A DNA stretch of 62,258 nucleotides, the filler included, from Hausera hauseri (taxonomy: Eukaryota), in assembly GCA_046269625.1 (NCBI GenBank). It is 9 parts of 9 records of this genome, joined end to end, with 100 filler letters (N's around TTAATTAATTAA, not from the genome) between each part and the next. Parts side by side here need not be neighbours in the genome. Positions count along the whole stretch, not along the records: positions 36,636 to 41,952 come from JBJURY010281618.1; 8 more parts are not named here. One strand, 5' to 3'. A model generated the notes under the pieces. The model was not told the origin of the DNA. It saw only the letters and a list, made by a program, of their open reading frames with translations, and did no database searches. This document shows positions 37,594 through 42,052 of this stretch, piece after piece. Made by a program: the position numbers and the translations under genes. Position 1 is the stretch's first letter; each line of letters begins with the position of its first letter.

Positions 37594-39394
37594 ATAAGGA
37601 TTTTCCATGAGCATCCCACTGCTGCATGTATTCCGTAAGCTTTACAAAGTGTAGTAAATATCGCTCGTAGGGTACTGATAATGAAATATATTGCTAAAAA
37701 TCCTGAGGCAGCCTGACCAAAATACAAAACTTTTTCCCACATCTTTTCCATAACATTTCTGGTGAATTTCTTCAGATAATCTCTGCCCATTAAGTTTTCC
37801 ACTTGTGGTGAACCTTCTCCGTCCCACATCACTCTTCTTGTTAATTCTATTATTACCCGTTGTCTCTTCTTGGGAAACAGTAACATTCATCGGTAGTCCT
37901 TTAAATTCTGTTGTGTGTAAATTCCTCCTTGTGATATGCCGGTAAGTAGTTTAAGTTTCTGGTTTCTCTGTACATTAATCAGACTCAACGTTTCTGGTTT
38001 CGTTACCGGATCTCTTTTTGGCATTCTAATCCATTTATTATCCATTTTAAACATTAGTGACATACTGAAAGTACAATTATCCAACTGAGTTGGTCTTGTA
38101 TAAGAGTATAGTACTATTCTATTTACCGGCATTACGTACCGACGTTCCATATTATAGATTACCGGCAGTTCTGAAGTACATTCCTCCGTCGGCCTAATTG
38201 CTACTTCTATCTTTTGCACTCAATAGTTATCAATACTTCGCCCATTACTCTTCCAATTACTCCATCGCCGAATGGCATCACCGGAGCTACAATATCGGGG
38301 TTTGTTATTACTAATATCATTTTATTTCGTATTATTCCATAATTCAGTTTACATTCGTTCAATATAATTTCCCTATATAGAATTCTGATCTCTTTCCTGA
38401 CGTAGTTAATTAGAAACTCGATTTTATTATCAAAATATTGTGTCAACTTTATATCCTTCTTGTCTATTTTGGTTTTCTCACCGGGTATTTCTTTTCCCGA
38501 TACGAAAATACTTCTGTACTTGGTTTTTAATATTTCTTCGCTACATTTAGTTGCTACTCCCGTGATTTTGAATCGCATCATTTCTTCTGGGTTTTCCGAA
38601 TATACAATTGTAGCTACTTCTGTCATCTTGACTTTCTTTGTTCCTTCTTTATATGTGGCTGTTTCTTTTTTCGCCGTTTTTCTTGCCGTTTTATTAAACT
38701 TTCCTTCGTTTGACAGCGTTAACTGACATTTACTTGCAGAGGCTTTCTATGTCATTTCCGACTCTCCAGTATCACATTCGCCATTACCATACTCGCATTC
38801 ACTCATAATCATCAATTTTTTTCTGTGAGTCGAATAATACTTCATATTCTTTCAACTGGACTGAAAATCTTCTATGGCTACCGTTCTAGGCGCAATAGTA
38901 CCTCCAACATCGTAATCCACTCTATTGCAAGTGCCTTCCATTGTTTTATCCATTCTTCCTGCCCTGAATATTCTGGTATATTTTATTCGGTTTTGAACTG
39001 CCGGTATGTGCGCGTTTTGTATAGTTATAATACCAATCTTAAAAGTATCTTGACATTCCGCTCGAGATATAATGATTTGTTCGAAAGGTGTTGTGGGCTC
39101 GATTATGGCTGAAGTTCCAGAATAATAGGCACAGTTAAACAGAAAAAATGATCTTTTCACGTAACATTCCCTAACTTTTGCTTTTATAAATTCGGATTCT
39201 TGATATACCCAGTACGTGAGACCACTTGTCGTTGTTAATTGTTCTGGATCAGCTTCTGCACATTTCTCTAAATCCACTAGAGAGTATTTTTGTCCTTCGC
39301 TGGGTTTAGAACTGTCATAAGCCACTATACCTACGGCTTTCGGCATTAATAATGACGTTATTAGGAGAATCTGAAGAATCTCCATTATTGACAT
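37594..39394 (-). pseudogene. env: Chuvirus/herpes-gB-like class III fusion glycoprotein (env), decayed, copy 2
   Basis: Signal peptide MSIMEILQILLITSLLMPKAVG|IVAYDS; KYSLVDLEKC; VYQ..REC..FNCA; NECKLNYGIIRNKMIL..NPD..GVIGRVMGEVLITIEC; CTSELPVIYN; TM YFGQAASGFLAIYFIISTLRAIF..GCSWKIL. Confidence 0.85.
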
Positions 39395-40605
39395 ACCTGT
39401 TATGCCTGGTCTAGAGATATTTGGTTGTGTCGCAGTTGGCGTATCTGTTACTCTTTCGCGTTCTCCCGTCCTTACTATATTGGTCATTAGGCTGGTCAGT
39501 CATCCGCCTCTACATTGAGCCTAATTTCCTAACGTATCTTTCAAGATCTTCACGGCTGTCCCGATATTCCGCTCAATCTCTTCTAGATTTTGAGTCTGAT
39601 GATTAATTACTATTATTTTATATAGGAGATATGATATAGCCGTTCGAGAGTTTTGTCGCGTAATTCCAGTTGCAAACACTTTTTCTAAAATATCCAGCTC
39701 ATGCAGTTCATTTATCCGTTCTTCCTCTAAGTTCTCATAGAATTGTCTACTTATTTGTAGCATATTATTACGTAACGTTGTGAACAGTTTACCTGGGATT
39801 ATTGCCTGCTTGTCAAATGAGGCAAATGACGTATGTAGCTTAGCCAATAACGTTCTTAGTAATAGATCTATATCCACCTATTCGGGTGTGCCATTTGTTC
39901 CTGCTAATAATAAACGTCTTACTATTGCTTCGTTCCTATCTTTTCTGTTACGAATGTCACTTATTTTTGTCCCTTTTGGCCTACCTCTTCTCCTAGTTTC
40001 CGTCTAAACTATGACATCTTGCGTACCACCCGTAGGAATTTCTTCTGTTTCGTGTGGATCCACTTCTCTTAAAATATTCTCTTCTGTTGCCTGTGCTTTT
40101 GCCTCTGAATGCATTTCGGTTATCGTTATCGGATTATAGTTCTCACTTCTACATCCAATTCTCAATAATTTATCGTAATTATATAGCGTCCTTCCATAAT
40201 AATTTAGACCATAAGGGCTTCCTTGATAAAAAGGTTTCACCTCCTCAATCTTTTCTCTTAGAGATTGTATATCGTCTGCTTCGTTCATCCTAATGACCCT
40301 CATATCTTGGTTTCCTTCCCTTACCGTTATCCGTATGACTTCATTTTTTTCTTTCTCGTCCTCGGCAGCTTTGGCCAATACTGTCCTGGCTATTTCTCTT
40401 ACAGGACTCGTATCCTGGACTAATAGTACCAATTAAGGTAAGATCTCATTCATCCTTTCTACCGTTACTTTATTGGTAATTATCTTCAATATCGTGGTAG
40501 TCGTTTTATCAACATCGATTATATTATCGGAATCGACAGTAATTACTGCCTGAATGATATCCTCTTCTTCATCTAAATCTACACCTGGATTCCTTATTAC
40601 TTGCT

Positions 40606-41928
40606 TTAATATAGCTTTATCGAATATTGGTGTAGCTTAGTTTCATCGTACTCAAGTGAGGGTGTGCTGAGGTTACTCTTCTTTCGTCCTCTTTTCTTTT
40701 CCTTTACTACCTCTTCTCTATCTGTTGACGTTTTTCTTGATTCAACCTCTACGTCAATTATTTTCTTATTGCCTTTCTTTCTTCCTTTATGAGATACTTT
40801 TTTCTCTGGTTGATTTTCTATCATATAGATACTACTTTCTTTCAGTCTTTGCTGCTGTCTTTTAAACTCCTTTAATTCTATTTCTAACTGCTTCTTCGTT
40901 CGTTGGGATAACTTATCATTGATATAATTGACACTTTCTTTCTTTCTTTCTTTCTTTCTTTTTGTTTTTTTCTTAATTTCGTTTTCACTAACGCTATCAG
41001 CCGTTTTGTATTCCTTATCGGAGGATTCATCTGACGTGGCCGATGTATAATCTTTCTTCTGTTGTTTCTTCTTATTACTTGATTTTGAGGAATTTCCTTT
41101 ACGTGATCTACATGAGTTGGCTATATGCCCATATTTATTACAATTAAAACACTTTAGTCTTCCTTCGGAATCTATGTTAGGTAAGGATTTTCCATCCTTC
41201 TTAGATTTCTTCTTATAACTTGCCTTGTTCCCATCGTTTCGTAAATTAAATCTTACTTTCTTTTCCACATTTGACTCATCTTCCGTGGCTGACGTTTGTG
41301 AGACACTTCTGTTTCTTTCATAACGTTGATACCTTTGAGTACTATTGTTTCTTCTTTTATCGTAACCATTGTTATTACTTTTAGGCTTGTTCCACATATA
41401 CAGTTCCGCATCTCGTTCGGCTTTTCGCGCCTTTCTTATTGCTTCCTGGAAAGTAGGTGGGTCTGCTTGTGAAATTATTGTCCTTAACCTTTCTTCCAAT
41501 CCATATTGAAACTGGGCTAACACTGCGTTATTTTGTATCGTAACGTCAAGATATGCTCTTGATGCAAGTTTTCCCAATGCGTAGACAAAGTCCTGGACTG
41601 TTTCGTCTTTACGTTGCCTCCTTCTTATGAACTCTGCGATTCTCCCCTTTCCAGAGGGATCTATCAAAAAGTTTTGAGGCAGTTTTTCTTTAATTCCTTT
41701 CCAGTCCTTCTTGTCTTCATTCCGCATTTGGAAATATATCATAAGAGCCGTCCATTTTAAATGAAGGGGTAATGTTTCTACTCTTTGCTTGTTGTCCCAG
41801 CCGAAACTTTTGGAATATACTTCATATTCCATCATAAAATCCTGTATGTCTTTGCCCGAAATTTTTTTCATCGGTAAGTTGAAATCAGCCTTCGACTGAA
41901 TCACCTGCTCTACGTTATGATTTGCCAT
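40606..41928 (-). CDS. gag: Ty3/Gypsy-type Gag (capsid plus CCHC zinc knuckle and basic tail)
   Basis: DIQDFMMEYE...GWD..LPLHLK..A; RRQRKDETVQDFVYALGKLA.RAY; QFQYGL; CFNCNKYGHIANSC. Confidence 0.93.
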   Translation of the reverse strand: MANHNVEQVIQSKADFNLPMKKISGKDIQDFMMEYEVYSKSFGWDNKQRVETLPLHLKWTALMIYFQMRNEDKKDWKGIKEKLPQNFLIDPSGKGRIAEFIRRRQRKDETVQDFVYALGKLASRAYLDVTIQNNAVLAQFQYGLEERLRTIISQADPPTFQEAIRKARKAERDAELYMWNKPKSNNNGYDKRRNNSTQRYQRYERNRSVSQTSATEDESNVEKKVRFNLRNDGNKASYKKKSKKDGKSLPNIDSEGRLKCFNCNKYGHIANSCRSRKGNSSKSSNKKKQQKKDYTSATSDESSDKEYKTADSVSENEIKKKTKRKKERKKESVNYINDKLSQRTKKQLEIELKEFKRQQQRLKESSIYMIENQPEKKVSHKGRKKGNKKIIDVEVESRKTSTDREEVVKEKKRGRKKSNLSTPSLEYDETKLHQYSIKLY

Positions 41929-42052
41929 TGGTTCGTCCTCACTTAGATTTCTNNNNNNNNNNNNNNNNNNNNNNNNNNNNNNNNNNNNNNNNNNNNTTAA
42001 TTAATTAANNNNNNNNNNNNNNNNNNNNNNNNNNNNNNNNNNNNNNNNNNNN

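Follow-up and report, generated by a model that had tools for sequence, protein, structure and literature searches.

A probable Burro-like Ty3/gypsy element, now decayed, in Hausera hauseri and the likely membrane topology of its relatives' polyprotein

The window analysed here is a 62,258-nucleotide stretch of Hausera hauseri DNA in which nine contigs follow one another, with an artificial spacer of the form N44/stop-linker/N44 between them, and it holds two diverged copies of a glycoprotein-bearing long terminal repeat (LTR) retroelement. Copy 2, our main subject, makes up most of a 5.3-kb contig at 36636-41952 and lies on the minus strand, as do all of its features given below. Copy 1, on a separate contig at 9295-15950 (minus strand), is heavily decayed, and in it can be read a helical region, a helix plus ubiquitin-like (UBL) module, a signal, a glycoprotein, a transmembrane (TM) segment, a protease-like (PR) sequence, reverse transcriptase (RT) and RNase H (RH). 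Because the contigs were joined artificially, the relative placement of the two copies is uninformative. The relatives cited by P-number are predicted proteins from protein databases, 14 of which were looked at in detail. A full HMMER scan with the X-read accessory/glycoprotein frame of copy 2 as query gave 157 matches at E <= 0.001; this unindexed scan found relatives where word-index protein searches gave none, either for the N-piece of the glycoprotein (longer proteins) or for the accessory region of P0004 (shorter proteins). The family is abundant, with 31,414 related public contigs in run X1 and 2,782 in X2.

Gag, accessory domains and glycoprotein of copy 2

Copy 2 opens with a Ty3/gypsy Gag open reading frame (ORF) of 448 codons at 40606-41952, comprising a capsid-like region, a CCHC knuckle and a basic low-complexity tail. 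The knuckle is single and lies at 41151-41110 (PF00098, E 8.7e-5), bearing out the Gag call of an earlier sequence-only reading of this DNA. The 5' end of Gag coincides with the contig edge, where no LTR is visible, and the ORF is 50% identical to the Gag part of P0004 across 162 aa. Gag had been thought to continue directly, in the same frame, into the sequence that follows it; the two frames in fact differ, with a shift of -1 at 40582-40651.

From 40636 to 38207 the accessory/glycoprotein frame runs for 810 codons with 8 stops, whereas the remaining five frames have 31-96; it is therefore coding beyond chance. Translation places the stops at 40435, 40006, 39880, 39523, 39502, 38854, 38749 and 38209. 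A short stretch near 38861-38816, inside the glycoprotein, is out of frame, and for the C-terminal half of that protein the reading switches to a third frame (38219-37566), which has one internal stop, at 37889; copy 2 is thus spread over three frames in total. The sequence-only reading had described four ORFs in one frame, broken only by point stops at 40432, 39877, 39487 and 38626. These positions do share a frame, but they are the starts of ORFs and not stops, and the frame changes within the glycoprotein, together with more stops than it had listed, leave no place for a frame interrupted by point stops alone.

The accessory region begins with a predicted four-helix module at 40345-40582, which contains one stop (40435), followed at 40106-40342 by a UBL (beta-grasp) domain of the integral type. 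The predicted fold of 40582-40100, with a predicted local distance difference test score (pLDDT) of 82.5, consists of four helices and a ubiquitin-like domain; the UBL model is matched in Foldseek (E 1e-4) and in VIA (Z 11.8, root-mean-square deviation (rmsd) 1.8, 75 aligned), and a profile match to the ubiquilin UBL was obtained as well (E 0.0015). At the level of the predicted fold, the ubiquitin-like domain of copy 2 is confirmed; it lacks a C-terminal Gly-Gly. The layout proposed from sequence, gag-HEAT-UBL-SP-G-TM-PR-RT-RH (SP, signal peptide; G, glycoprotein), holds up for its UBL; where it placed HEAT repeats there are four helices with no match to a repeat family, and it missed a Bcl-2-like domain altogether. 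No Pfam HEAT match was found, and in the structure searches the match lists were filled by the UBL, the helical part never having been searched alone. The helix+UBL module is conserved in P0004, P0009, P0010, P0017 and copy 1. Beyond it, at 39974-39994, lies a GRP motif that we take to be AT-hook-like and that is also present in 5 of the 14 relatives examined.

Directly before the signal, at 39485-39847, a Bcl-2-fold domain is predicted by modelling, with the stops 39523 and 39502 inside it. The model has a pLDDT of 72; in VIA every one of its top 30 matches has the Bcl-2 fold (best Z 8.7, rmsd 3.1, 111 aligned), and the Foldseek rows listed are all of the Bcl-2 family. A profile of 9 sequences over the region matches Bcl-xL (E 3e-4), sub-threshold PF00452 matches occur just upstream of the signal in five relatives (1/17 in one Pfam scan, 4/12 in another), and a BH2-like motif is retained in relatives. 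ESM Atlas gave no usable match for this region, and of 152 scanned with the UBL and Bcl-2 profiles, the only relatives picked up were those that had gone into building them. A PDB search with the single sequence P0088 returned one match, which we judged to be due to chance.

The internal signal-like hydrophobic segment, called from hydropathy and its context in relatives, lies at 39329-39394. Small residues precede the predicted start of the mature glycoprotein at ~39328, the mature N-terminus is conserved, and in 8 of 12 relatives the segment is hydrophobic enough to pass the threshold. The ectodomain that follows, at 37731-39328, is that of a Monjiviricetes-type (HSV/gB-type; HSV, herpes simplex virus) fusion glycoprotein: four pieces of it match PF24664 (E 7e-13, 2e-16, 3e-17 and 6e-15), in keeping with the signal-then-glycoprotein order first read from the sequence. 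It is broken by stops at 38854, 38749 and 37889 and by frame changes at ~38861-38816 and 38219-38209. A profile of the relatives' glycoproteins matched only gB in the PDB, weakly (E about 0.4). Hydropathy places the transmembrane anchor at 37644-37730, and a TM segment follows the ectodomain in all 11 relatives that reach that far. Up to the TM, copy 2 has Gag with its knuckle, helices, UBL, signal, glycoprotein and TM in the order that the sequence-only reading gave.

Relatives, known elements and the decay of copy 2

The best match, P0004 (E 5.7e-142, 39% identity over query residues 19-753, 735 residues), is a single chain that runs from Gag through the accessory region and signal to the glycoprotein. 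In 6/14 relatives the glycoprotein is on the same chain as a CCHC knuckle; five of these six continue to a protease motif, and two of them, P0010 and P0024, extend through RT, RNase H and integrase (IN). P0010 is filed at NCBI as a hypothetical protein (HBK71150.1) of a Flavobacteriaceae metagenome-assembled genome (MAG); the record is evidently eukaryotic contamination and, since it is labelled as a bacterial MAG, the protein is probably an unspliced, plain ORF call. The stop-free single chains of the relatives agree with the single Gag-accessory-glycoprotein-Pol polyprotein with an internal signal that the sequence-only reading had put forward, and the recurrence of the layout in diverged subfamilies agrees with its view that the layout is common to the lineage. 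Several relatives carry 2-7 tandem aspartic-protease domains.

The Pol is of Ty3/gypsy type, with RT and RNase H found in copy 1 and a profile with P0010 matching Ty3 Gag-Pol best. The RT of copy 1 is 44-53% identical to those of glycoprotein-bearing relatives, compared with 27-34% for other RTs in the window. Decayed Ty3/gypsy pol fragments at 336-2270 (minus strand), 32825-34861 (plus strand) and 59622-61742 (minus strand) are related to one another and fall outside the glycoprotein-bearing clade.

Between copy 1 and copy 2 the motifs noted earlier (YSLVDLEKC/YSLMDLEVC, IIEPTTP/IIKPTTP, GEVL, FGQAASGF) are all present, and the copies are, as had been said, diverged: aligned protein blocks are 29-51% identical, and the DNA aligns over just 55 nt. 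In the accessory region, pairwise tblastx gave no match from one copy to the other. A helix+UBL profile from which copy 1 had been left out does detect the module in that copy, in two frames (E 7e-5 and 0.0096), and the module is therefore common to both; the accessory regions are homologous in part, with no Bcl-2 match detected in copy 1. Upstream of its helix+UBL module, at 15100-15949 (minus strand), copy 1 has ~280 helical-looking codons for which copy 2 has no counterpart and Pfam gave no significant match.

How copy 2 came to be broken can be judged from related contigs. At least 95% of their depth reads otherwise at the stop codons 40435, 40006 and 38748; the comparison covers the differences listed (40 of 1,406), so at least three of the stops differ. 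Related contigs also vary in length at the frame changes of copy 2: at 40638, in the Gag/accessory junction, 10 of them do so (83/577 depth in X1), and in X1 the shares at the decay shifts within the glycoprotein are about as low (11-37%). The stops and frame changes together are likely private decay of copy 2, which in its present state cannot make such a polyprotein.

The closest known system is Burro/GYPSM1, a group of giant Ty3/gypsy elements of dugesiid planarians, in which ORF1, according to the available portion of the description by Arkhipova and Yushenova (PMC6431247), encodes in frame Gag, a Ubi2/SUMO-like domain, BCL2, a mononegavirus-like env, PR, RT, RH and IN, the internal region reaching up to 25 kb and the whole element >30 kb with its LTRs. 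The likeness lies in the order Gag(CCHC), UBL, BCL2, env, in an env that stands in frame between gag and pol in the relatives, and in many copies and decayed fragments. Copy 2 differs in being more compact (~440 aa between Gag and the signal), in having one CCHC where Burro has 2-3, and in that a MATH/TRAF, Smc and midasin-like region is not seen in it; in the window pieces scanned, MATH_TRAF_C, Smc, ankyrin, BIR and dUTPase-like domains gave no match, the copy being decayed and cut off, and ankyrin was found in the relative P0154. The defining features of a Burro-like GAG-ENV-POL element that could be checked are present in the element as read from both copies and the relatives, in compact form and with UBL and Bcl-2 as predicted folds. 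Such a layout, with its UBL, BCL2 and in-frame env, has already been published (PMC6431247), which removes the novelty that the sequence-only reading had implied.

A second body of work, by Chary and Hayashi, reports elements of GAG-ENV-POL order whose env is gB-type from Platyhelminthes (including six in S. mediterranea), Nematoda and Bryozoa (PMC13524379, from the portion available). Gene order, a gB-type env flanked by signal and TM, and a sequence likeness to the C1a env group of S. mediterranea are points in common, and copy 2 differs in not being intact. The env part of P0039 is ~94% identical, by eye, to the env of S. mediterranea GAG-ENV-POL errantivirus 1 as far as that env is given; P0039 and the copy 2 glycoprotein are 34% identical (E 2e-17), inside the 27-64% range among the six S. 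mediterranea elements. A single polyprotein, accessory domains and topology are not discussed in the available part of PMC13524379.

Two further systems can be set beside these. The flaviviruses and hepaciviruses offer an analogy in their series of capsid, internal signal, glycoprotein, TM and cytosolic enzymes, with no homology of polyprotein organisation. The nematode NERV of Sacco et al. 2022 reportedly has a continuous gag-env-pro-pol ORF. These elements resemble copy 2 and its relatives in having env between gag and pol and in a glycoprotein that was taken from a lineage of negative-strand RNA viruses. NERVs are not known to have a UBL or Bcl-2 module.

Proposed membrane topology and competing explanations

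Taking these observations together, we consider it probable that copy 2 is a decayed Burro-like Ty3/gypsy element and that the one-frame polyprotein of its relatives likely threads the endoplasmic reticulum (ER) membrane once in and once out. In such a scheme synthesis would begin on the cytosolic side with Gag and the helical, UBL and Bcl-2-like modules; the translocon would then be opened by the internal signal, and cleavage by signal peptidase would leave the glycoprotein with a free N-terminus in the lumen; the TM segment would halt transfer, so that PR-RT-RH-IN would come out on the cytosolic side, where Gag and Pol could be released by the element's protease. With the signal helix as its tether, the N-terminal part would remain at the membrane and hold the Bcl-2-like domain there much as in a tail-anchored Bcl-2 protein; as particles form beside the envelope protein, the domain would likely dampen death of the host cell or innate signalling. 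From hydropathy, it is reasonable to infer a luminal glycoprotein with Gag and Pol in the cytosol, as the sequence-only reading had proposed. A bolder version would have enveloped particles made from one ER-threaded polyprotein, flavivirus-style, with the env signal helix anchoring a working Bcl-2-fold suppressor of death or immunity fused to Gag and thereby keeping the producing cell alive; we regard this as possible and somewhat doubtful. Poxviruses and herpesviruses, whose Bcl-2 mimics are among the structural matches in VIA, offer an analogy for a Bcl-2 fold on a virus-like element.

Several observations weigh against the main reading. Just three copy 2 stops appear among the differences listed (40 of 1,406), and the length difference at 40638 has a minority share in X1 and is not seen in X2, where the depth is 17. 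The single chains come from predicted proteins, and P0039 is chimeric with MRP-L47, so some of them may be splice-aware predictions; the comparison with Burro is with its published description. About 25 residues past the TM a weaker hydrophobic patch rises above threshold in 1 of 11 relatives (P0016), and if it makes a real second pass the topology of Pol changes. For the Bcl-2 domain, the Foldseek E-values are 0.03 or weaker, for a helical domain a Z of 8.7 counts as modest, the BH1 motif is degenerate, and copy 2's own region has no Pfam match. Profile searches left the domain undetected in copy 1, P0009 and P0010, all of which carry the UBL, indicating that the accessory region is modular.

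Among the alternatives, the one that survives best is that a single ORF exists in the DNA and most Env is nevertheless made from a subgenomic mRNA, spliced or from an internal promoter, starting at the signal Met, as in Drosophila errantiviruses or Oikopleura Tor, with the polyprotein serving mainly for Gag and Pol. A Met does head the signal segment at 39394, Tor env comes from spliced or internal-promoter RNAs according to the accessible part of PMC4402516, and a 1:1:1 ratio of Gag, Env and Pol would be unusual. This arrangement is nonetheless unlikely, given that in relatives Pol lies in frame downstream of the glycoprotein, so that a Pol mRNA must cross or skip the glycoprotein, and that several relatives have no Met heading the signal.

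It is very unlikely that the element carries the glycoprotein and accessory domains along as passengers, after a single capture, with no further use in particles and no role but that of a linker, cut out by the protease or bypassed in the synthesis of Pol. Subfamilies do gain and lose accessory modules, and our literature search found no reports of infectivity, as this explanation would have it. Set against it are the glycoprotein blocks that remain alike as protein (29-51%) while the DNA barely aligns, the retention of signal, cysteine pattern and TM across distant relatives, and the long-term structural constraint on these env proteins reported in the available part of PMC13524379.

Least probable of all is a programmed -1 ribosomal frameshift of this subfamily as the cause of the frame change near 40636-40582, one that would give free Gag and a rarer long polyprotein, an option the sequence-only reading had raised near 40620: the shift is indeed -1 and at the end of Gag, its usual place, and most of the depth at 40638 has no listed length difference, but a slippery heptamer (XXXYYYZ) is absent in 40760-40560, the closest relative P0004 is one continuous chain across the Gag/accessory junction, and the 10 contigs that differ in length at 40638 amount to a share like that of the decay shifts in the glycoprotein. 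The frame change between Gag and the accessory region is likely decay and not a programmed shift.

With a decayed Burro-like element and an ER-threaded polyprotein in its relatives as the preferred reading, copy 2 adds another subfamily, more compact and decayed, and brings predicted-fold support for UBL and Bcl-2 domains that in Burro were called at the level of motifs. What it offers beyond this is a topology, in which Gag-UBL-Bcl-2 would be tethered on the cytosolic face, with the glycoprotein luminal and Pol cytosolic; our literature search, mostly outside subscription papers, found neither a topology model nor a functional test of the Burro Bcl-2 domain. If true, this would be a retroelement with a membrane-spanning polyprotein and its own cell-death modulator, which bears on how such elements reach high copy number in stem-cell-rich animals. 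In the planarian soma BURRO1 RNA is under PIWI control, as described in the accessible part of PMC8532177.

A separate observation concerns the C-terminus of P0008, P0010, P0013 and P0154, where another signal-like segment, a few hundred residues and then a TM follow the integrase; this suggests a second luminal domain in these four relatives.

A probable nested LTR element and other features of the window

At 37405-37593 (minus strand) lies a sequence of ~189 bp with LTR-type ends (TG at 37593, CA at 37406-37405), likely the 5' LTR of a second, nested LTR retrotransposon. Downstream of it, at 36636-37332 (minus strand), a broken gag with several zinc knuckles runs off the contig; pairwise tblastx found no other match for this gag within the joined stretch. 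Among public contigs, 96 loose ends fall at 37593 and 32 at 37600, and depth below the junction is several-fold to >tenfold higher than for the host element. The sequence adjoining 37593 in those contigs is a purine run on the element strand, as expected before a 3' LTR. We infer that the nested element inserted after the TM at 37593, which is why Pol is not seen in copy 2.

Elsewhere in the window, an intronless, stop-free ORF of 532 codons at 16585-18183 (minus strand) encodes a DEAD-box helicase with a GUCT domain (DDX21/50-like) and is possibly a retrocopy or a single-exon gene. An intronless O-GlcNAc transferase-like sequence at 19889-21969 (plus strand), with a frame change near 21190, is probably a retrocopy; its named animal matches are mostly 60-71% identical, and its best match is 83% identical. 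The sequence at 24178-24774 (plus strand) has no Pfam match and is a fragment that resembles the C-terminus of an RTE-type long interspersed element (LINE) ORF. A 288-codon ORF with short internal repeats lies at 29423-30289 (plus strand). The 11-kb degenerate TTCG-type simple-repeat array at 46402-57451 is the source of many spurious long ORFs, and a 64-bp tandem repeat is found at 16310-16556.

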